DNA from: Candidatus Latescibacterota bacterium
GTDB taxonomy: Bacteria; Latescibacterota; UBA2968; GCA-2709665
Assembly: GCA_965237675.1 (NCBI GenBank)
Contig: OZ250150.1
Location: 3,456,001-3,520,000 of the forward strand
Direction of reading: 5' to 3'
DNA: 64,000 nucleotides
Shown here: in pieces, positions 16 to 8,731 of the stretch
How positions within the stretch are numbered: position 1 is the stretch's first letter
Layout of the letters: every line of letters starts with the position of its first letter
Position numbers and translations under genes: made by a program
Notes under the pieces: generated by a model
Seen by the model: only the letters and a program-made list of their open reading frames with translations
Told to the model about the DNA's origin: nothing
Databases searched by the model: none

Positions 16-1002
16 TCAGGGCAGGCGTTTGCCGAAGTTCTTTGCGAATTCCAGAAAGTCCGGAAAGTCGACCCGTCCGTTCCCATTCAGGTCGTAGATG
101 GCGTTGTCGGTGTTGAAGGCCTGGGCAAAGCCGATGAAGTCACTGAATCCGATTTCCCCGTCACCGTCGAAATCCGCCCGGGAGTCGCCATAGACAACGA
201 CGGCCGTTCCGGAGAGCGAGACGGCAATGCTGCTGTTTTCCGGGTCGTTGCTCAGAATAGTGATGGTGCCGGAGAAAGGGCCGGCCTCCACGGGGGTGAA
301 GGTGATTTCGACCTTCGCGCTGTCTCCCGCCGCAACGATTAGTTCGGTTTGACTGACGGAGACCCCGTCGAGGTCGGATTGAATGTTGGTAATGTCGAGG
401 GCGTTTTCGCCGGTATTCTTCACGACCAGGGTCAAGGTCCTGGATTCTCCCGCTGGAACGTCCTCACCAAAGTCGAGTGATGAATTGGAAATATTGATTG
501 CAGGCGGCAGGACGGTCAGCAGTTGGCGGATACGCGCGGCCGTGGCGCTAAGGCCGGATGCGGTGCGCCCCCCGATGTGGCGGACGATCCCTTCTCGGTC
601 CGCGACTAACAAAGTGTGAACACCGAGGGTGGTCTGAACGTTGCGGCCGGCCTCCAACAGCAGCGGGAATGTGATCGAGGTCGCTGCCTGAAAGCCTTGA
701 AGTTGCGACTTGTTGCCATTATATAGGTCAAGCCCCAGGACCGTTACGCCATCGTCCTGGAACGCCTTCCAGATCTCTTTTTCTATGGACGGACCCGCCG
801 CCCTGCACGTAGGTCAGTTATGGCCCAGGTAATAGAGGACCAGGACACTGCCCTTGTAATTCGCCGGGGTGTAGGTTTTTCCATCCAATCCCGTCAGCGA
901 GAAGTTGGGTACTGCATGGTCGACCTGCTGGGCTTCCGTGGGCCCCAACGGGTAGAGTCCCAGAACCAGCAGGAATACGACAAACGTAGCGATTCGACTC
1001 AT
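16..1002 (-). CDS. Exported selenocysteine-containing redoxin (AhpC/TSA/TlpA-like, U63-P-T-C66) fused to an Ig-like (ASH/choice-of-anchor D-like) domain and a C-terminal dockerin/EF-hand-like module; 328 aa
   Basis: ATG at 1002 with GGAGG RBS and signal peptide MSRIATFVVFLLVLG..TEA. In-frame TGA at 816-814 reads VLYYLGHN-U-PTC, and the frame stays open into track ORF 16..657. Redoxin motifs PNFSLTGLDGK, VTVLGLD, ITFPLL, DREGIV; C-terminal ADFDGDGEIGFSDF..YDLNGNGRVDFPDFLEFA. Confidence 0.85.
787..803 (-). promoter_or_regulatory. Putative bacterial SECIS element
   Basis: Minus strand reads UGA-CCUACGUGCA-GGGCGG-CGGGU-CCGUCC: a 6-bp stem whose G-containing loop starts after 16 nt downstream of the UGA. 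Confidence 0.65.
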
Positions 1003-1036
1003 CGCAATCCTCCATTGAGAGAGTGTGTGGCCTGCG

Positions 1037-2620
1037 TCAGAAATGGGTTTTAATTCGCATTTCAAGTCCATTGAATGGCAGCACCTGATAGCAGGTGCCC
1101 GATGTACATGCGGCGCCGCCGCGCCTGCGCCCGGCGAAAACGAGGGCTTCGTATCGTTCAAGGAAGCGGACGTTCAGATTGACCGCCAACCAGGTGCGCG
1201 TCCCGGTCTCAATCCGATCCGCCGTTGCGCCATCGTCCACTTCAAACGGATCGTTGGTGCGGTCCAGAACAAGAGCGGCACCCATGCCCGACGAATGCTG
1301 ATACGAGGCCTGGGCAAAGACATCCCGGAACGCCGGTTCGTTTTGTGGTAGCCTGGCCGCGCGCCGGACCTGCAGATTGAATCCCAGGACATCCCCGCGG
1401 GGTGTAATGGATTCGACCCCCACGCCAGCGATTCTGTGCTTCCCGATCCCCTTCAGTTCGTCTTTTCCCCAGTCGACGAACAGGTTGGTTGAGATCGCGT
1501 GGCCCCGATCTTCCGACGGGAGGTCGACGTCCACGCCTAAATACCGCTCGTTGAAGGTTTTTACGAAGCCGGGCGCCAGTTCGTTCTCTCCCGTGCTTAT
1601 GTTGGCCGTCAGCGTGCCCAGGCCGAATAGCGTATATGTGGCTTCCGCCTGATAGCCTTTTTCGGTATCGGCAAGCAGGGCGTGGGTAGATCTGTTGAGT
1701 AACACAGCCGAATGTTCACGAACCAGGGATGGGGGATCGTTGAAACTGAAGGCGAAATTCCGATAGTCTTTATATTCCACGCTCAGGCCCAGGTTTGAAA
1801 TGCCGGAGTTGGCGGAAAGATAGAGGGCGCTTCCGTCCACGTGAATGTCCTTCAGCCCGGCATATTCGGCGTAGACGGTCGCGTAGACGTCCGGCCGGCC
1901 CGATGCTTCGAATGCGGGAGTCATGTCGAGTTCCAGGAAACCGGACCATGTGCGGGTTGAGTCAAGCCTGCTGGCATGATGGCTGACGGCCGTGACACCT
2001 GTCTTGATCGGGTTGGTGGGGCGTAACGAGATCTCGCCCCCGACGAGCCAGTTGTCCCTCCGAGGTATCTCGCGCAGAGGGTCTCCCGCCCGTACCGCGG
2101 GCGGAATGTCGCCCAATACGGGACGCCCGATCAGGGCTTTGGCCTCGGCTTGCCGTCCCGACCAGGTGGCTATACCGCCCTCCAGGTCTCGCGACGGCGA
2201 ATAGCGACGCCGGTATTGAGCGCTCTCCAGTATCACCCCCGGGAGATCGAAGGCCCTGAGCGTGATTCCCCGGCCCAGTATGGCGTAGTAGTTGCCCGCG
2301 ACCAGTTCGGTGGGTCCGCGATTCCACCGCAGGTGCTTCTGTGAAATATGCACCACCTGGTAGTCAACCGTTGAAAGCTGCGAGCCCGGGGCGGGGTGCC
2401 GCCACGAATTGAAGATTTCCGCCCGGATTCCTGCCTGAAGTCCGTGCCGGTTATAATCGACATCGAACTGCTCGTAAAGTGTGGAGACCGCCAGTGAATC
2501 CCCGCCCGGTACGCGGCCGCGCTGGATTTCGGTCAGACTGAAGGCCGTGACTTGCGCGGATGACGGGGTCGCGTTGAGGAGCAAAAGGAGTGCTCCCAGG
2601 CTATTTCTCAGCGTGGGCAT
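1037..2620 (-). CDS. Putative outer-membrane beta-barrel protein (DUF6029-like) with C-terminal CxxGxC motif
   Basis: Signal peptide, alternating amphipathic strands, C-terminal Phe, VAGNYYAILGRGITLR and SVEYKDY..NDPPSL segments, tail RRGGAACTSGTCYQVLPFNG. Family name is recalled, not searched. Confidence 0.7.
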   Translation of the reverse strand: MPTLRNSLGALLLLLNATPSSAQVTAFSLTEIQRGRVPGGDSLAVSTLYEQFDVDYNRHGLQAGIRAEIFNSWRHPAPGSQLSTVDYQVVHISQKHLRWNRGPTELVAGNYYAILGRGITLRAFDLPGVILESAQYRRRYSPSRDLEGGIATWSGRQAEAKALIGRPVLGDIPPAVRAGDPLREIPRRDNWLVGGEISLRPTNPIKTGVTAVSHHASRLDSTRTWSGFLELDMTPAFEASGRPDVYATVYAEYAGLKDIHVDGSALYLSANSGISNLGLSVEYKDYRNFAFSFNDPPSLVREHSAVLLNRSTHALLADTEKGYQAEATYTLFGLGTLTANISTGENELAPGFVKTFNERYLGVDVDLPSEDRGHAISTNLFVDWGKDELKGIGKHRIAGVGVESITPRGDVLGFNLQVRRAARLPQNEPAFRDVFAQASYQHSSGMGAALVLDRTNDPFEVDDGATADRIETGTRTWLAVNLNVRFLERYEALVFAGRRRGGAACTSGTCYQVLPFNGLEMRIKTHF

Positions 2621-3137
2621 CTGCGTTTGCCTCGGCGTCTCCGGGCTTTGAAAAGAGCGACTCTACTGCGGCCAGTAACGCTTCGGCGTTTTTCGAATTG
2701 TATCCGACCTGCCGGAGCGTAATCTCGCCATTCTGCGTGATCAACAGCGTGGTTGGCAGGACATTGACTTGCATTCGCCGCATCACGCCGCTGTCGGAGT
2801 CCAGGGCGATGGGGAAGCTGACGTTTCGCGCCCGGAGAAAGGGTTTCACCCTGTTCTGGCCTCGTGGCCCGTCCACGTTGATGCCAAGTACCGTGAGTCC
2901 GGATTTTCCGTATTTCTCGTGGATCTTCTGAAGTTTGGGCATCGCCTTGACGCAGGGCTTGCAATAGGTCGCCCAGAAATCCAGAAGCACCGGTCCTTTC
3001 GTCAGAAGGGTTTTGAGGTTGACCCGTTCGCCCTGCAGGTTCCGGAGGTTGAAGTCGGGCGCGGAGGCGGCATCCGAGGATGCGACGCCGAGGACGATGG
3101 AGGCGATTGCAACGAACAATGGACGATTCGATTTCAT
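2601..3137 (-). CDS. TlpA/ResA-family thiol-disulfide oxidoreductase (exported)
   Basis: APDFNLRNLQG, LLDFWATYCKPC, cis-Pro VLPTTLLI, N-terminal signal peptide. Start trimmed to ATG 3137; stop overlaps the next gene's start by 20 nt. Confidence 0.9.
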   Translation of the reverse strand: MKSNRPLFVAIASIVLGVASSDAASAPDFNLRNLQGERVNLKTLLTKGPVLLDFWATYCKPCVKAMPKLQKIHEKYGKSGLTVLGINVDGPRGQNRVKPFLRARNVSFPIALDSDSGVMRRMQVNVLPTTLLITQNGEITLRQVGYNSKNAEALLAAVESLFSKPGDAEANADAHAEK

Positions 3138-3267
3138 CAATAGGAACTCTCCGCTGAACCGCGCCGGCCTGAGCACTGAAGGTTTTTCATGGCATAGGCG
3201 CCCGGACCTCGGTGTGGTTTCCGGCCCGGGACTCGCCATTGCGACGCATTTTGCGTCGAATCGCTTA

Positions 3268-3296
3268 ACAATAACCGAAATTCCCCGCCACATCAA
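3268..3296 (-). promoter_or_regulatory. Putative sigma70 promoter of the tlpA-barrel-selenoprotein operon
   Basis: TTGATG-17-TATTGT, followed by inverted repeat CGACGCA-N3-TGCGTCG at 3242-3258. Confidence 0.45.
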
Positions 3297-3764: not shown

Positions 3765-4817
3765 ATGGTACAGATTGGCATTATCGGTATCGGATTTATG
3801 GGGATGACCCACTATCGAGGCGCCCGTCGGGTGAAAGGCGGGAAGGTGACGGCCATCTGCACGCGGGACGAAAAAAAGTTAAAGGGGGATTGGCGGGGGA
3901 TTCACGGGAATTTCGGGGACCCCGGAGGCATTGAAGATTTGTCCGGGATCCGGACGTACCGGAAGATCGAAGATCTGTTGGCGGATCCGGAAATCGATCT
4001 TGTGAACATCTGCCTGCCCTCGGCGATGCATAGGGACGTGACGATAGCGGCGTTGCGGGCGGGAAAGCACGTGCTGCTTGAAAAACCGATCGCGTTGAAC
4101 CCGAAAGACGCCAACCGGATGGTTCAAGAGGCAAGCAAGACGCGGCGCTCGCTGATGGTGGCGCAGGTGCTGCCGTTTTTTCCGGAATTCGCCTATGCCC
4201 GAAGGGTCGTGGAGGAGGGGAAGTACGGCGAGCTTCTGGGCGCGCACTTCAAGCGGATTATTTCGCAGCCCGACTGGTCTTCCGAATTTGGAGACGTCGA
4301 ACGAAGCGGCGGACCGGGTGTTGACCTGCACATCCACGATACCCACTACATTCTTCTGCTGTGCGGCGTCCCCGACCAGGTATCTTCAACCGGCCGCCTC
4401 GTTAACGATCGTTACGCCGAGTATCTGTGTACGAGCTACAGGTACCACGACCGACCGGGTCTGAGCATCACCTGCGCTTCCGGGGCGATTTCGCAGCCCG
4501 GCCGCGCGTTTGCCCACGGATTCGAGATCTACCTCGAGCAGGCAACGCTGATTTACGAATTTGCCACGTTGGGCGATAAGCCGGTTCTGTCCATGCCTCT
4601 CACGCTACTTACGGACGACAAGAAAGTCCGAAAACCCAGATTGGGCTCGGGCGATCCGGTAGTCGCGTTTACTCGTGAGATTCAGGCTGCGGTCGATGAA
4701 GTGGCGAGCGGGGTTCCCGCCGAGGCACTGTCCGGGGTTCGGGCGGCGGACGCCCTCCGGCTCTGTTTCAAGGAGGTCGAGTCCGTGCGTCGCGGGCGGG
4801 CGGTGCGGGTAAAATAG
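3765..4817 (+). CDS. Gfo/Idh/MocA-family NAD(P)-dependent oxidoreductase
   Basis: IGIIGIGFMG Rossmann motif, AGKHVLLEKP, GGPGVDLHIHD. Confidence 0.92.
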   Translation: MVQIGIIGIGFMGMTHYRGARRVKGGKVTAICTRDEKKLKGDWRGIHGNFGDPGGIEDLSGIRTYRKIEDLLADPEIDLVNICLPSAMHRDVTIAALRAGKHVLLEKPIALNPKDANRMVQEASKTRRSLMVAQVLPFFPEFAYARRVVEEGKYGELLGAHFKRIISQPDWSSEFGDVERSGGPGVDLHIHDTHYILLLCGVPDQVSSTGRLVNDRYAEYLCTSYRYHDRPGLSITCASGAISQPGRAFAHGFEIYLEQATLIYEFATLGDKPVLSMPLTLLTDDKKVRKPRLGSGDPVVAFTREIQAAVDEVASGVPAEALSGVRAADALRLCFKEVESVRRGRAVRVK

Positions 4818-5014: not shown

Positions 5015-6472
5015 TTAATTTCTCACCGCGATATCAACCGGTTTGCCCTGGGCGAACTCCGCTTCGACATTGCTCAGGCCGAAAAGGGTCGCGGAAAGGT
5101 CTCGGAGGGAGAGGGGTTCGGTAACGCGCAGACCCGCCGGCAGGCGGGGACCGATGAGAAGCGCGCGGTTGCCTGCCACATCCAGTAAGGCCAGGGTCGT
5201 CCGGTTCTGATAGCGGTGATGCTCCAGTACGACTTTCCGGATCTGTTCGATCGTATTGCGGCTGTCGGATCCGCCGGACAATTGAAAAAGCATCAGATCG
5301 GGTTGCGCCCTGGGAAGACAGGCAAGGACAAGCGAACTCACGAAGGCGTTCTTGAGTTCCAGGTTCTGATCGGAAGAAACGAGGGTCCTGACGACGAGCC
5401 GCGCCAGGACTTTGTTTTTGACGATTTTGTTGATTTTAAGTTTTTTCGGGGTGAGCGTCGGGTAGACAACATTGTCGATAAATGCCTGTGACCTGCCCTC
5501 CGACCTGGCTTCGTCCAGTGCAAGGCGGATTTTTTCCGCCGCCTGGTCTAAAGCGGAAGCCCGCACCGAGAGACACCCGAATTTCTTGTATTTCTTGTGT
5601 TTGCTGCGGTCCGGCGGGGCGCGATCGTCGAGATAGAAAGCCAGTGTGCGGGTACGGGTTTTGTCGTTAAGGGCGCGATTGTGATATTCGAAAAGGGTCG
5701 GGTGTGCGAGTTTGTCTCCCTTCAGCGCGTCGTCGCGGCCGGTCAGCAGGGTGGCCAGCCATCGTTCTGGCGGATTCGAAAAGGGCACGGTCTCCAGAAG
5801 GGTTCCCTGCGCGAGCAGGCTCTCGTCCAGCGTTGAATCGGATGATCCGGATTGCGCATGCATGATTGCGATTGCGAGTAGCGCCGGGGGGAAGTCCGCA
5901 CCCTCATAGACAAACCGATTGAACGCGGTTTCGATTCTTGCCCTCTGTTCCGGCATAATTTGCACATCAGGATTTCGCGGCCGCCTCTGAGCCGGCTCCC
6001 CGCGTTGCCCGGTTCCACGTCGCCGGCCAGGACCCTGTCGCAGTCCAGGTTCCCGACGTTGTCCAGGGCCCCTTCGCGTCCCGAAGATGCCTGCGATCGC
6101 CTCGCCGAAAGCCGCGCGCAGATCCCCATTCGACGCTTCCCTGGCCTTTATGAAAAAGTGTCTGAATCGCTCCCGCTCCTGCGGGAAGAAGTCATCCCAG
6201 TGTGTCAAAGAGTTAAGTATATAAGTCCTTATCGGGAGGGGAAGCCGGCGAAACGTCTCCTCGTTCCCCTTGACCAGGTCGTAGGCGCCAGTGGGGAGGT
6301 TGGAGAACTGGTCTCTTTGAAGTGGACTGAGATCAACGCCCCCGCCGCCTCTTCGACCTCTTCCGCCTCCGCCCCTTCGTTGCGCAAGCGTGTCCTCACA
6401 GGCAAGCAATAGGACAAGAAGGGTTGCCACGAGCGATATTATTCCTTGAGATGGTCTGGGGTAAACGGTCAT
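5015..6472 (-). CDS. Exported hypothetical protein with R/G-rich linkers and a degenerate alkaline-phosphatase/sulfatase-like C-terminus
   Basis: 485-aa ORF with GGAGG RBS and hydrophobic signal ending LLAC. C-terminal LLIGPRLPAG..LRDLSATLFGL..QGKPV resembles AlkP-superfamily ends. Confidence 0.6.
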   Translation of the reverse strand: MTVYPRPSQGIISLVATLLVLLLACEDTLAQRRGGGGRGRRGGGGVDLSPLQRDQFSNLPTGAYDLVKGNEETFRRLPLPIRTYILNSLTHWDDFFPQERERFRHFFIKAREASNGDLRAAFGEAIAGIFGTRRGPGQRREPGLRQGPGRRRGTGQRGEPAQRRPRNPDVQIMPEQRARIETAFNRFVYEGADFPPALLAIAIMHAQSGSSDSTLDESLLAQGTLLETVPFSNPPERWLATLLTGRDDALKGDKLAHPTLFEYHNRALNDKTRTRTLAFYLDDRAPPDRSKHKKYKKFGCLSVRASALDQAAEKIRLALDEARSEGRSQAFIDNVVYPTLTPKKLKINKIVKNKVLARLVVRTLVSSDQNLELKNAFVSSLVLACLPRAQPDLMLFQLSGGSDSRNTIEQIRKVVLEHHRYQNRTTLALLDVAGNRALLIGPRLPAGLRVTEPLSLRDLSATLFGLSNVEAEFAQGKPVDIAVRN

Positions 6473-6643
6473 TTTTCGCCTCCCCGAGCGAAGGTCAAGG
6501 AATTACGTACATGGTTTGGTTGCGGACTCTGCTTCGCGGCCGATTTTGTCAGCCGTAGACGATCGATTCCGCTGCTTTTGTCGCCCGCCGCGCCGTCGTG
6601 AACGAGGGCAGGACCGTCGCGCGAAACCGGGCGGGACGGTCGT

Positions 6644-7420
6644 TTAAAGGTGTTCTCGAAGCCAATATAGGATTTCGGCGCGGGCCGCCGGGTTGTTCAG
6701 GAGAGCCGGACCGTTGGCTGTGCCCTGGTATCCGCTGACCCGAACCGGCTCCCCGGTACGCTGTGCCAGGATTTCGGAAGAGGTATACGCGTACCCGTCG
6801 CCGTGGGCCGCCATGAACAGGATCGAGCGCGGCCGAAAGTTCGGGACACTGTTGCCGAGCAGGATATCCTGACTGAGCCGGGTGATGAGGGATATGACGA
6901 CCGACGTCCTGACGTCCGGATAGATGCCGGAACTGACGTAAGCAATGTTGGCGCCAAGCGCCGCGCCCACGAGTCCGATACGCCCTGCGTCGACGTCGGG
7001 ACGTTTCTTGAGCCAGCCGAGCGCACCCTCGATATCCAGGGGCATTTTGTTGATATCTTCCGTCTGGAAGGTGCTGCGCGGAAAATAGACGTCGTTCCGG
7101 AAGGTGCTCCCTCCATGTCCTCGAATGTCGTAGGCAAGCACATGGTATCCCTCGTTGGTCAGTTCCGGCACGAAGGGAATCCAGATATCGAGGTTCTGGT
7201 CGAAGGGGTGGATGAGGACAACAGCGGGCCGCCGCCCCGTCTGGCGGTTGGAGGTAAACCAGGCTGCAAGAATGCGAAAGCCGTCGGGAGTCGTAAATGA
7301 GACCGCCTCGCCCGTAACCATCTCCGGCGGCGTCGTTGGCTCGCCGTCGGTTGGCTGTCTGCCGCAATCCGTCGAAAGTAGGGCGAACGCTATGAGAGCG
7401 AGATATTTGCAAGGTGCCAT
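6644..7420 (-). CDS. Alpha/beta-hydrolase-fold lipoprotein, apparently lacking the catalytic Ser and His
   Basis: Lipoprotein-like signal, PAVVLIHP, LAYDIRGHGGS, RIGLVGAALGAN (GxSxG site reads GAALG), GTANG in place of GxxHG. Confidence 0.8.
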   Translation of the reverse strand: MAPCKYLALIAFALLSTDCGRQPTDGEPTTPPEMVTGEAVSFTTPDGFRILAAWFTSNRQTGRRPAVVLIHPFDQNLDIWIPFVPELTNEGYHVLAYDIRGHGGSTFRNDVYFPRSTFQTEDINKMPLDIEGALGWLKKRPDVDAGRIGLVGAALGANIAYVSSGIYPDVRTSVVISLITRLSQDILLGNSVPNFRPRSILFMAAHGDGYAYTSSEILAQRTGEPVRVSGYQGTANGPALLNNPAARAEILYWLREHL

Positions 7421-7909: not shown

Positions 7910-8731
7910 ATGTTTCGGATTACCCTGTGTTGGATGGCGGCGGTAGCACTCATCGTTCCGGCCGTTGTCGCGGACGGGTACGATCAACGACCTATCGAGA
8001 CCCCCGGCATCTCCCCTCGCGCCGCCGGCGCAGGTCGGAAGGCGGGCCCTTCGAAGGTGCGCAACCGGGCGGGGATGGAATTCGTGTTGATTCCAGCGGG
8101 TAAATTTCGCATGGGATCGGCGAGCGACGAGGCCGGAGACCAGGAAAAGCCGGTAACGGAGGTGACGATTGGGCAGGCATTCTACATGGGAAAGCACGAG
8201 GTTACCCAAAAGCAATGGGAAAAGTTAATGGGGAACAGACCTTCGGACTTCAAGAGATGCAATGACTGTCCAGTGGAACATATTTCATGGAACGACGCGC
8301 AGGCGTTTGTCCGCGCGCTCAACGACATGGAGGATTCGAAGCGGTATCGATTGCCCACCGAGGCCGAGTGGGAGTACGCCGCTCGCGGAGGGACGGCTGG
8401 GGACCGATACGGTGCCAACCTGGATGCAATCGCATGGTATGACAAGAATTGCGACGAACGTCCGCACCCGGTCGGGAAGAAAAAGCCGAACGGATTCGGA
8501 CTGTACGACATGCTTGGAAATGTCTACGAATGGGTCCAGGACTGGAAGGGCACGTACCCTGGCGGAGAAGTGACAGATCCGCGGGGCCCCGCCCGGGGAA
8601 AGTTCCGGATGATGCGGGGCGGAAGCTGGGAGAACGGCGCACAGAGTTGCCGGGCTACGCACCGCCTCGACGCGTCGCCCGGTTTCCGGATCCACGTTCT
8701 GGGCTTGCGGGTACTGATGGAAGCCCGTTAA
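7910..8731 (+). CDS. Formylglycine-generating enzyme (FGE-sulfatase/SUMF1) domain protein, exported
   Basis: AAGGAG RBS, signal peptide, FVLIPAGKFRMGS, RLPTEAEWEYAARGG, NGFGLYDMLGNVYEW, RGGSW. Confidence 0.92.
   Translation: MFRITLCWMAAVALIVPAVVADGYDQRPIETPGISPRAAGAGRKAGPSKVRNRAGMEFVLIPAGKFRMGSASDEAGDQEKPVTEVTIGQAFYMGKHEVTQKQWEKLMGNRPSDFKRCNDCPVEHISWNDAQAFVRALNDMEDSKRYRLPTEAEWEYAARGGTAGDRYGANLDAIAWYDKNCDERPHPVGKKKPNGFGLYDMLGNVYEWVQDWKGTYPGGEVTDPRGPARGKFRMMRGGSWENGAQSCRATHRLDASPGFRIHVLGLRVLMEAR

Follow-up and report, generated by a model that had tools for sequence, protein, structure and literature searches.

Background

Redoxins that carry selenocysteine (Sec) in place of an active-site cysteine have been catalogued in bacteria. 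The closest described group is the "Prx-like thiol:disulfide oxidoreductase" selenoprotein family, which belongs to PF00578 and carries a UxxC or UxxU motif, as given in the parts of Zhang et al. 2006 (PMC1794560) and of a 2026 catalogue (PMC13188914) that were consulted here. Section 5 of the same catalogue sets out a model of the bacterial Sec insertion sequence (SECIS): a loop of 3-9 nt on a stem of 4-16 bp, a G in the first two loop positions, a distance of 16-37 nt from the UGA to the loop, and a free energy of -7.5 kcal/mol or lower. Here, we describe a gene with these features in a 64,000-nt stretch of the genome of Candidatus Latescibacterota bacterium (GenBank assembly GCA_965237675.1, contig OZ250150.1, positions 3,456,001 to 3,520,000 of the forward strand). 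This whole stretch is referred to as the window, and plain coordinates are positions within it. The segment 1002..16 of the minus strand is very probably one gene for an exported selenoprotein in which the UGA at codon 63 is decoded as Sec.

Results

One reading frame with a single internal TGA

Two open reading frames (ORFs) of the minus strand, 814..1161 and 16..657, had been joined into one gene in an earlier sequence-only reading, and both the ORF list and a single-frame translation bear this out. The two ORFs lie in one frame whose sole internal stop is the TGA at 816-814, and translation through it yields the proposed 328-codon product, from the ATG at 1002-1000 to the terminal TGA at 18-16 (gene coordinates 16..1002, minus strand). 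The start Met (MSRIA...) is shared with same-genus homologues, and a Shine-Dalgarno-like GGAGGA at 1008..1013 (minus strand), 5 nt 5' of the ATG, may serve as the ribosome-binding site. The internal TGA (814..816, minus strand) is codon 63, read here as Sec and placed first in U-P-T-C within the context ...VLVLYYLGHN-U-PTC-RAAGPSIEKE..., and the TGC at 805..807 (minus strand) encodes Cys66, the putative resolving cysteine of the UxxC, in a column that is invariant in both the set of 50 and the set of 30 aligned homologues.

The TGA is not an assembly slip, because the contigs of three studies, one of which may be the source of the window's assembly, are identical over 814-816; neither TGC nor TGT was seen there. 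Nor is TGA reassigned in this organism, since the selenoprotein gene and its upstream neighbour both terminate with it.

The TGA column in homologues

The 165-residue N-terminal part of the selenoprotein was used as a query against 168 species genomes of the phylum, whose families are labelled f1, f2 and so on. Redoxin matches were found in 108 of these genomes. By a hand count among the 150 matches listed, approximately 138 contained one TGA, 10 no in-frame stop, one a TAA and one a TGA together with a TAG; in all 14 same-genus genomes, the gene match contained exactly one TGA. For the alignment, 55 loci were compared, namely, the best-scoring ones and 20 f3/f4 regions chosen from matches already marked as having one TGA, for which only the position of the column counts as a test. 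Among these distinct homologues, with identities of 27-83%, the codon 63 column holds TGA in 53 and TGT in two, both within CPVC, and the motif is U/C-x-x-C in all 55. Conservation extends to both sides of the column: F34, L36 and G60 upstream and C66, G90, P113, L115 and G138 downstream are invariant or nearly so (50 homologues; 30 N-terminal domains). As had been predicted, the column is thus occupied by TGA or Cys between conserved flanks, and since both features hold down to 27% identity, the read-through frame is beyond chance. Moreover, two full-length Cys forms among database proteins, P0083 (CPVC) and P0121 (CAPC), have the same redoxin, two Ig-like (immunoglobulin-like) repeats and a dockerin-like tail. 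The gene family extends across an entire class of uncultured Latescibacterota.

Several variants of the gene were observed. A tandem second copy with 64-66% identity is present at loci L022, L025, L026 and L027 (genomes G004, G011, G009 and G002, respectively); these copies have their own TGA in the same column, the motif U-(N/D)-L-C, and an A-U in place of G-C as the outermost pair of the hairpin described below. At loci L031 and L032 (genomes G006 and G014), a 432-aa variant has the Ig-like domain duplicated in frame. In genome G020, a Cys paralogue (CPVC; L033:766-1467, minus strand) keeps the hairpin GAACG/GGCC/CGUUC at the SECIS position, with one compensated change from G-C to A-U, which suggests, from its sequence, a recent Sec-to-Cys change. 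No hairpin was found at the SECIS position of the other Cys form, L067.

Sec machinery and its distribution

Is the organism equipped to decode UGA as Sec? The genes expected elsewhere in the genome were all found: selA (561 bits), selB (358 bits) and selD (363 bits, with one in-frame TGA) score above their cut-offs, selA and selB lie side by side, and a tRNA-Sec gene (anticodon tca) adjoins selB. The first two and the tRNA gene form a compact minus-strand cluster outside the window (G000:C1:4984019-4987542; L001, L007). The selD gene with its in-frame TGA, also outside the window (G000:C1:309559-310482; L014), probably encodes a selenoprotein too.

Across the phylum, selA exceeds the cut-off in 131 of the 168 genomes (20/21 in f1, 30/31 in f2, 3/3 in f3 and 71/76 in f4), and it was not found in f5, f6, f7, f11, f12 or f14. 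A redoxin match is present in 102 f1-f4 genomes, and only two of these, the fragmented assemblies G018 (80% complete, 820 contigs) and G032 (91% complete, 430 contigs), are without selA. The f4 genera without selA (g14, g15 and g29) are also without the redoxin. In five distant genomes the matches are free of in-frame stops, and selA is missing from four of these genomes. Judged from these gene contents, the TGA forms of the redoxin co-occur with selA across the phylum.

A SECIS-type hairpin within the coding sequence

The sequence-only reading had placed a stem-loop with its loop 16 nt past the UGA, and a SECIS-type hairpin is present as claimed at 787..803 (minus strand): GGGCGG (803-798) and CCGUCC (792-787) form a 6-bp stem around the loop CGGGU (797-793). 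An alternative 4-bp register, GGCG/GGUC/CGUC, lies at 799-788 (minus strand). The hairpin is located 10-27 nt downstream of the UGA, inside the coding sequence; its loop opens 16 nt past the UGA and has G at the second position, and its folding energy is -9.3/-9.4 kcal/mol. It satisfies every constraint of the published bacterial SECIS model as given in section 5 of the catalogue (PMC13188914).

Whole-fragment folding energy was dropped as a SECIS test after giving no signal for this one gene; GC-rich Ala/Gly/Pro/Arg codons readily fold by chance, and positional and comparative tests were therefore used instead. A hairpin at the same offset was found in each clade, with a different sequence and over different amino acids: GGACG/GGUC/CGUCC, GAGCCGCG/GGUC/CGCGACUC, AACGGACG/GUC/CGUCCGUU, CUCUCG/CGUGC/CGAGAG and UCGCGG/AGG/CCGCGA. 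The f2 hairpins contain an internal C·A mismatch and are missed by the contiguous-stem hairpin scan, which makes the f2 p values of 0.36-0.6 an artefact of the scan rather than a sign that the stem is absent.

Covariation was counted in ungapped alignments with fixed columns for f1 and f2 together (31 sequences) and for f4 (16 sequences); three f3 sequences, whose stem is one nucleotide out of register, were left out of the pairing counts. In the f1 and f2 set, 71.8% of cells are paired, compared with 33-53% when the partner strand is slid, and the covariation score is 0.206, compared with at most 0.08, with 1 of 500 shuffles attaining the observed score; in f4, the corresponding values are 90.6% compared with 24-51% and 0.290 compared with at most 0.067, with none of 500 shuffles attaining the observed score, all of these contrasts being inflated in favour of the observed values by the choice of the tested structures from the same, related sequences. 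One f4 pair is U-A in nine sequences and G-C in seven, a compensatory exchange. Support for the candidate SECIS comes from this cross-clade comparison of sequences and not from the hairpin of this one gene.

Domain composition and active site

The proposed order of redoxin, Ig-like and dockerin-like domains is recovered in the product, with Pfam matches to AhpC-TSA, HYDIN/DUF1573 and EF-hand_1, Dockerin_1 remaining below its cut-off. The N-terminus (residues 1-24, MSRIATFVVFLLVLGLYPLGPTEA; 931..1002, minus strand) resembles a signal peptide by eye, with a charged residue, a hydrophobic stretch and then TEA|QQ, and similar N-termini occur in homologues; in the AlphaFold2 model, residues 5-15 form a low-confidence helix. 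It is followed by a ResA/TlpA-like thioredoxin-fold redoxin domain (residues 27-142; 577..924, minus strand), supported by Pfam, AlphaFold2 and Foldseek, which matches AhpC-TSA PF00578 (E 1e-15, 58.2 bits, cut-off 26) and Redoxin PF08534 (E 5e-11, 43 bits, cut-off 26.6). The Ig-like domain of the ASH/PapD-like, HYDIN, DUF1573 and choice-of-anchor D kind (residues 167-265; 208..504, minus strand) matches PF22544 (1.4e-13), PF07610 (1.4e-12) and the NCBIfam choice-of-anchor D model NF012200 (51.1 bits, cut-off 45); it is modelled as a beta-sandwich, for which Foldseek returns HYDIN 2e6j and CEP192 6fvi (PapD-like). At the C-terminus, a dockerin-like pair of EF-hand loop-helix units (residues 275-325, DFDGDGEIGFSDF..., DLNGNGRVDFPDF...; 28..180, minus strand) includes an EF-hand_1 match at residues 302-322 (28.6 bits, cut-off 25.4) and modelled helices at 286-295 and 313-322. 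No type IX sorting domain (Por_Secre_tail) was found in the window protein with Pfam.

The AlphaFold2 model, built on 50 homologues, has a mean pLDDT (predicted local distance difference test) of 90.5. In it, U63 caps the N-terminus of helix 64-81 directly past strand 53-59, which the model identifies as the canonical CxxC site of the thioredoxin fold; together with the homologue column, this agrees with the earlier placement of the TGA at the first position of that motif. Both hallmarks of the fold are present: helix 1 carries a C/U-x-x-C at its N-terminus, and the cis-Pro loop (P113) is conserved. C66 and P113 are invariant. The top Foldseek matches in the PDB are 2ls5 (a Bacteroides TlpA-like protein), ResA (1su9, 1st9 and 3c71) and the DipZ C-terminal domain, with target TM-scores of 0.79-0.86. 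At the level of NCBIfam families, the window protein falls outside ResA (45.9 bits, cut-off 170), StoA (26.4, cut-off 210) and DsbE (13.2, cut-off 123). The peroxidatic motif PxxxTxxC/U is not in the window protein, in which U63 is preceded by L-G-H-N, with Gly60 at -3 and Leu56 at -7.

Tails, export and surface location

All 50 complete homologues contain AhpC-TSA, 33 contain one or two Ig-like domains, and 26 contain EF-hand_1; Dockerin_1 (PF00404) matches seven of them at E<=0.001. In family f4, and only there, the Ig-like and dockerin-like tail is replaced by FlgD_ig (14/50) and Por_Secre_tail (11/50). The window's genome encodes the SprA translocon and has six cohesin matches (PF00963) above the cut-off, and in some of its proteins a cohesin directly precedes a type IX sorting domain. 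The same dockerin-like tail occurs at approximately 95 places of this genome, where it ends predicted proteins, many of them large.

The export claimed by the sequence-only reading is upheld by the signal-peptide-like N-terminus, recognized by eye and kept in homologues, and by the type IX C-terminal domains of the sister family; on these sequence features, the selenoprotein is in all likelihood exported. Tethering to the surface through a dockerin-cohesin contact, also proposed there, has about an even chance of being correct. The simplest reading of the tails is that either type would place the redoxin at the cell surface, in f4 by its own sorting domain and in f1-f3 by docking onto a cohesin. 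The predicted complex between tail residues 266-328 and the cohesin module (residues 20-178) of a 266-aa protein has a score of 0.13 (mark 0.32), which carries no weight either way on binding.

The cohesin proteins of approximately 266 aa form a multi-copy family in which a signal-like N-terminus is followed by a single cohesin and then by a type IX sorting domain (G000:C1:4145323-4146120, with paralogues at 5582403, 4937763, 5035761 and 1695857; L106, L118). They are kept in all 26 relatives searched and, from their domain order, look like dedicated surface docking posts. Examples of the dockerin-like tail are located at C1:5054790-5054990 and C1:2396474-2396713, and database relatives with the same tail include P0054 and P0056, which contain a domain of the formylglycine-generating enzyme (FGE)-sulfatase type. 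Outside the window, an 815-codon frame at G000:C1:3574270-3574833 (L105) has a cohesin and a dockerin-like match, the latter containing the frame's one in-frame TGA.

Operon neighbours and surroundings

Three closely spaced minus-strand genes form an apparent operon that ends with the selenoprotein gene. The first encodes a TlpA-like CxxC redoxin with the motif WATYCKPC (2601..3296; AhpC-TSA 1.4e-23, Redoxin 4.8e-20), whose true start is probably an internal Met near 3137, and the middle one encodes a DUF6029 protein (1037..2620; PF19494, 9.5e-14). The TlpA-like gene overlaps the DUF6029 start by 20 nt, and the DUF6029 gene ends 34 nt before the selenoprotein ATG. The AlphaFold2 model of the DUF6029 protein (pLDDT 70.4) is all-beta, with approximately 26 long strands, a signal helix and a C-terminal Phe; its Foldseek matches are usher pores, Occ porins and TonB-dependent transporters, at a TM-score of about 0.5 that amounts to a generic likeness. 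On this model, the protein is predicted to be a large outer-membrane beta-barrel.

A DUF6029 homologue lies beside the Sec-redoxin at all 20 f1 loci (L018-L037) and at 12 of the 20 f3/f4 loci, and in f4 the two genes are convergent or divergent; it was found at none of the 11 loci L071-L081, whose flanks are only 1.2-1.5 kb. In five f4 loci (L090, L092, L095, L098 and L099), a TlpA-like homologue adjoins the Sec-redoxin. Since the association outlasts rearrangement, the gene order suggests that the DUF6029 and TlpA-like neighbours are functionally linked to the Sec-redoxin. One DsbD-type membrane protein is encoded in the window's genome, away from the operon. A promoter and terminator scan of the operon gave nothing above shuffle expectation.

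Approximately 277 nt separate the selenoprotein stop from the next downstream gene on the same strand (L018:1-1221, minus strand), which lies just beyond the window start and which we take to encode a tRNA(Ile)-lysidine synthetase from its SGGPDS motif. On the plus strand, the window contains a GFO/IDH/MocA oxidoreductase gene (3765-4817) and an FGE-sulfatase gene (7910-8731); the ORFs between them, 5015-6472 and 6549-7412 (both minus strand), have no Pfam match.

Representation in databases

In a collection of 5.8 billion proteins, 60 relatives were found. Their coverage of the query is at most 74%, and the closely related matches all stop short of the active site. They are either C-terminal fragments of 195-241 aa or longer proteins that match only the Ig-like and dockerin-like part; those with names are a "choice-of-anchor D domain-containing protein" or a "DUF1573 domain-containing protein", from sources labelled as Gemmatimonadota or Candidatus Latescibacteria metagenome-assembled genomes (MAGs). 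One fragment, P0153, starts with MTGPSIEQ..., immediately past the UxxC. Fragments of this kind, beginning beyond the active site, are what would be expected of one gene split by ORF calling, as had been argued. In a protein-library search dominated by Ig-repeat giants, only the two Cys forms P0083 and P0121 span the active site, and these were its useful matches. A single-protein scan gave only 10 close relatives, titled as Candidatus Latescibacterota and in some cases Gemmatimonadota MAGs. In metatranscriptome run X11, one 213-nt contig covers 80-289 with nine differences; it may come from a relative, another dockerin gene or carried-over DNA and carries no weight for expression or habitat.

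Discussion

Four independent lines of evidence support Sec at codon 63, namely, the machinery, comparative genomics, the phyletic pattern and the hairpin. Taken together, these sequence comparisons make it highly probable that the codon is decoded as Sec in a genuine, lineage-wide and mis-annotated gene. If the TGA were instead a true stop, the locus would be a pseudogene or would encode a 62-residue peptide and an internally started "choice-of-anchor D" protein. TGA is indeed the ordinary stop of the window gene and its upstream neighbour, the C-terminal fragment is called in many records, and the window hairpin alone is not significant; however, such a stop would cut the thioredoxin fold exactly at its active-site residue, while 53 of the 55 distinct homologues, down to 27% identity, share this one TGA with conservation on both sides, Cys substitutes for it in paralogues and in full-length database proteins, and the TGA forms co-occur with selA, all of which makes termination there extremely improbable. 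A reading of the UGA as Trp, Gly or Cys, through a changed code or near-cognate decoding and without selenium, draws on the fact that the inserted residue cannot be told apart by sequence analysis. We consider it hardly credible, given that TGA terminates the window gene and its neighbour, that tRNA-Sec lies beside selB and selA, and that the aligned residue in TGA-less relatives is the Cys of the active-site CxxC, the classic Sec/Cys pair.

A number of observations nevertheless weigh against the interpretation of the locus as an exported, surface-tethered selenoprotein. The Sec assignment is a comparative one, and the estimated contamination of the window's genome is 8%. Genome G071 has selA, yet its redoxin match is without an in-frame stop. 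Taken by itself, the window hairpin does not stand out from dinucleotide shuffles (z of 0.02 for 91 nt and 0.61 for 47 nt) or from synonymous recoding (free energy, p of 0.4; positioned hairpin, p of 0.108), and over 52 Sec sequences, synonymous recoding gave a median p of 0.077, with p<=0.05 in 37%; to this must be added the inflated covariation controls mentioned above. A competing pairing in 787-816 (minus strand) joins GACCU (815-811, overlapping the UGA) with GGGUC (796-792); as GACCN/GGGUC, it dominates the minimum-energy structures of 55 nt in the window's genus and in f2, where it takes the form of a longer stem that takes in the UGA. In the window protein, Dockerin_1 (PF00404) reaches 15.8 bits against a cut-off of 22.9 and the NCBIfam model NF041540 (dockerin_GC) 24.7 bits against 29, and dockerin-tailed forms have no evident route across the outer membrane.

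Another important question is how the protein might work. SelB and tRNA-Sec would decode UGA 63 under the direction of the hairpin within the coding sequence, giving a product composed of a signal peptide, a ResA/TlpA/CcmG-like domain, one Ig-like spacer and a dockerin-like, calcium-binding tail. ResA, TlpA and CcmG use the first residue of their motif for nucleophilic attack, and a selenolate is more reactive and is fully ionised at neutral or acidic pH. Outside the cytoplasm, the U63 selenolate could thus attack a substrate disulfide or other oxidised sulfur, and C66 would resolve the mixed intermediate, leaving a selenenylsulfide. This disulfide reductase chemistry, argued by analogy, is probable. 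The selenenylsulfide would be re-reduced by a thiol carrier, for which the best candidate is the co-operonic CxxC TlpA-like redoxin, itself possibly supplied by the genome's single DsbD-type membrane protein; electron supply from this neighbour is plausible, although we lean slightly to the doubtful side.

The product might instead act as a periplasmic selenoprotein of the ResA/CcmG/TlpA-like type, working, for instance, on the DUF6029 barrel, on a copper chaperone or in cytochrome c maturation, and with the Ig-like and EF-hand tail used only for periplasmic protein contact or calcium binding. Its closest structures are indeed periplasmic or extracytoplasmic reductases (ResA, DsbE-like, DipZ C-terminal domain), a CxxC partner and a DsbD-type protein are present, and U-P-T-C resembles what we take to be the CcmG-type C-P-T-C; Dockerin_1 staying below its cut-off and the absence of an evident export route for the dockerin forms point the same way. 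The tails argue otherwise, since in the sister family the type IX domains (Por_Secre_tail 11/50, FlgD_ig 14/50) take their cargo to the surface, and the approximately 95 occurrences of this tail in the genome together with the cohesin/type IX fusions fit surface docking better, so that a purely periplasmic role appears rather unlikely. An extracellular Sec peroxidase, peroxiredoxin- or glutathione-peroxidase-like, in place of a disulfide reductase is very unlikely. AhpC/TSA is the best Pfam model, Bcp-type peroxiredoxins are among the Foldseek matches, and the NCBIfam models of thiol peroxidase, PrxQ and glutathione peroxidase match weakly (18-23 bits, cut-offs 140-270), but UxxC sits at the helix cap without a PxxxTxxC/U motif, ResA/TlpA-like chains outrank peroxiredoxins in target TM-score (0.79-0.86 versus 0.68-0.72), and the catalogue, in the part consulted, sets the UxxC "Prx-like thiol:disulfide oxidoreductase" apart from the TxxU peroxiredoxin (PMC13188914).

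Returning to an exported Sec-dependent disulfide reductase, the three neighbouring genes might together form a thiol/selenol relay that exports reducing power from the cell. In the periplasm, a DsbD-fed TlpA-like redoxin would hand over to the Sec-redoxin at the surface, with the DUF6029 barrel as the passage or docking site; the Sec-redoxin would sit on type-IX-anchored cohesins or, in the sister family, be held by its own type IX tail. The selenoprotein would then be the disulfide-breaking member of a surface assembly, beside the approximately 95 dockerin-tailed proteins, and Sec would have been chosen for staying reactive in an oxidising exterior. We regard this full relay as improbable.

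The locus illustrates how gene callers systematically miss bacterial selenoproteins. The family is present in at least 100 species-level Latescibacterota genomes, often in several copies, and public sets hold mislabelled C-terminal fragments; because it appears only as fragments, the selenoproteome and redox biology of the phylum are understated. Its product is a concrete candidate bacterial selenoenzyme of the cell surface or exterior. Across the family, the Sec head and the genomic neighbours stay the same, and the tail alternates between dockerin-like and type IX sorting modules. The locus also gives a first functional handle on DUF6029. The natural Sec/Cys pairs and the varied small SECIS hairpins provide a test bed for SelB recognition beyond model organisms.

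Comparison with known systems

The redoxin head is of a known kind, since UxxC Prx/TlpA-like Sec redoxins are already catalogued. As far as the consulted descriptions of the Prx-like selenoprotein family go, the window protein shares with it the AhpC/TSA thioredoxin fold, Sec as the first residue of UxxC, Cys homologues at this site and a SECIS in the coding region directly past the UGA. The examples described there, with which the comparison is by description only, are from Deltaproteobacteria (Geobacter, Syntrophus and Desulfotalea), whereas the window protein is from Latescibacterota. The TlpA-like UGC/WAxxUGC Sec family is alike in fold and in placing Sec within the redox motif; the motif itself differs, and the window protein is not a member (NF041054, 13.2 bits against a cut-off of 300). 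The window redoxin may be the same as the cd02966 UxxC entry, and the family may already be in a large-scale list.

The sequence-only reading had found no counterpart of the architecture among characterised selenoproteins. This stands for the whole protein, for which the literature sources consulted hold no matching description, and not for the redoxin head, itself a catalogued kind. The words "dockerin", "signal peptide", "periplasm" and "secreted" are not in the catalogue text searched, and no literature description was found of a selenoprotein with a dockerin-like or type IX tail, although supplementary tables may list the family. No literature description of Latescibacterota selenoproteins was found either, and a study of sponge-associated Latescibacterota (PMC12993501) has no occurrence of words beginning with "selen" or of cohesin, thioredoxin or T9SS.

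Compared with ResA of Bacillus subtilis and with TlpA/CcmG (1su9, 1st9, 3c71, 2ls5 and 3gl3), the window redoxin superposes with a root-mean-square deviation of about 2 A over approximately 135-145 residues. Common to these proteins are a CxxC or UxxC at the helix cap, the cis-Pro loop (P113) and an extracytoplasmic location, which for the window protein is predicted. It differs from them in having Sec as the likely nucleophile, in an identity of only 20-24%, in being without a membrane anchor, and in its added Ig-like and dockerin-like modules. With systems of cellulosome-type cohesin and dockerin and type IX cargo, the window protein shares two calcium-loop/helix repeats and the presence of cohesins in its genome. 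Unlike in cellulosomes, these cohesins are fused to type IX sorting domains and not to S-layer homology modules, and they would dock a redox enzyme where cellulosomes carry glycoside hydrolases. The UxxC redoxins in the consulted part of the catalogue are small single-domain proteins, while the window redoxin opens a larger secreted protein of several domains; what is new is this architecture, together with the conserved neighbours, the DUF6029 barrel and the CxxC TlpA-like redoxin.

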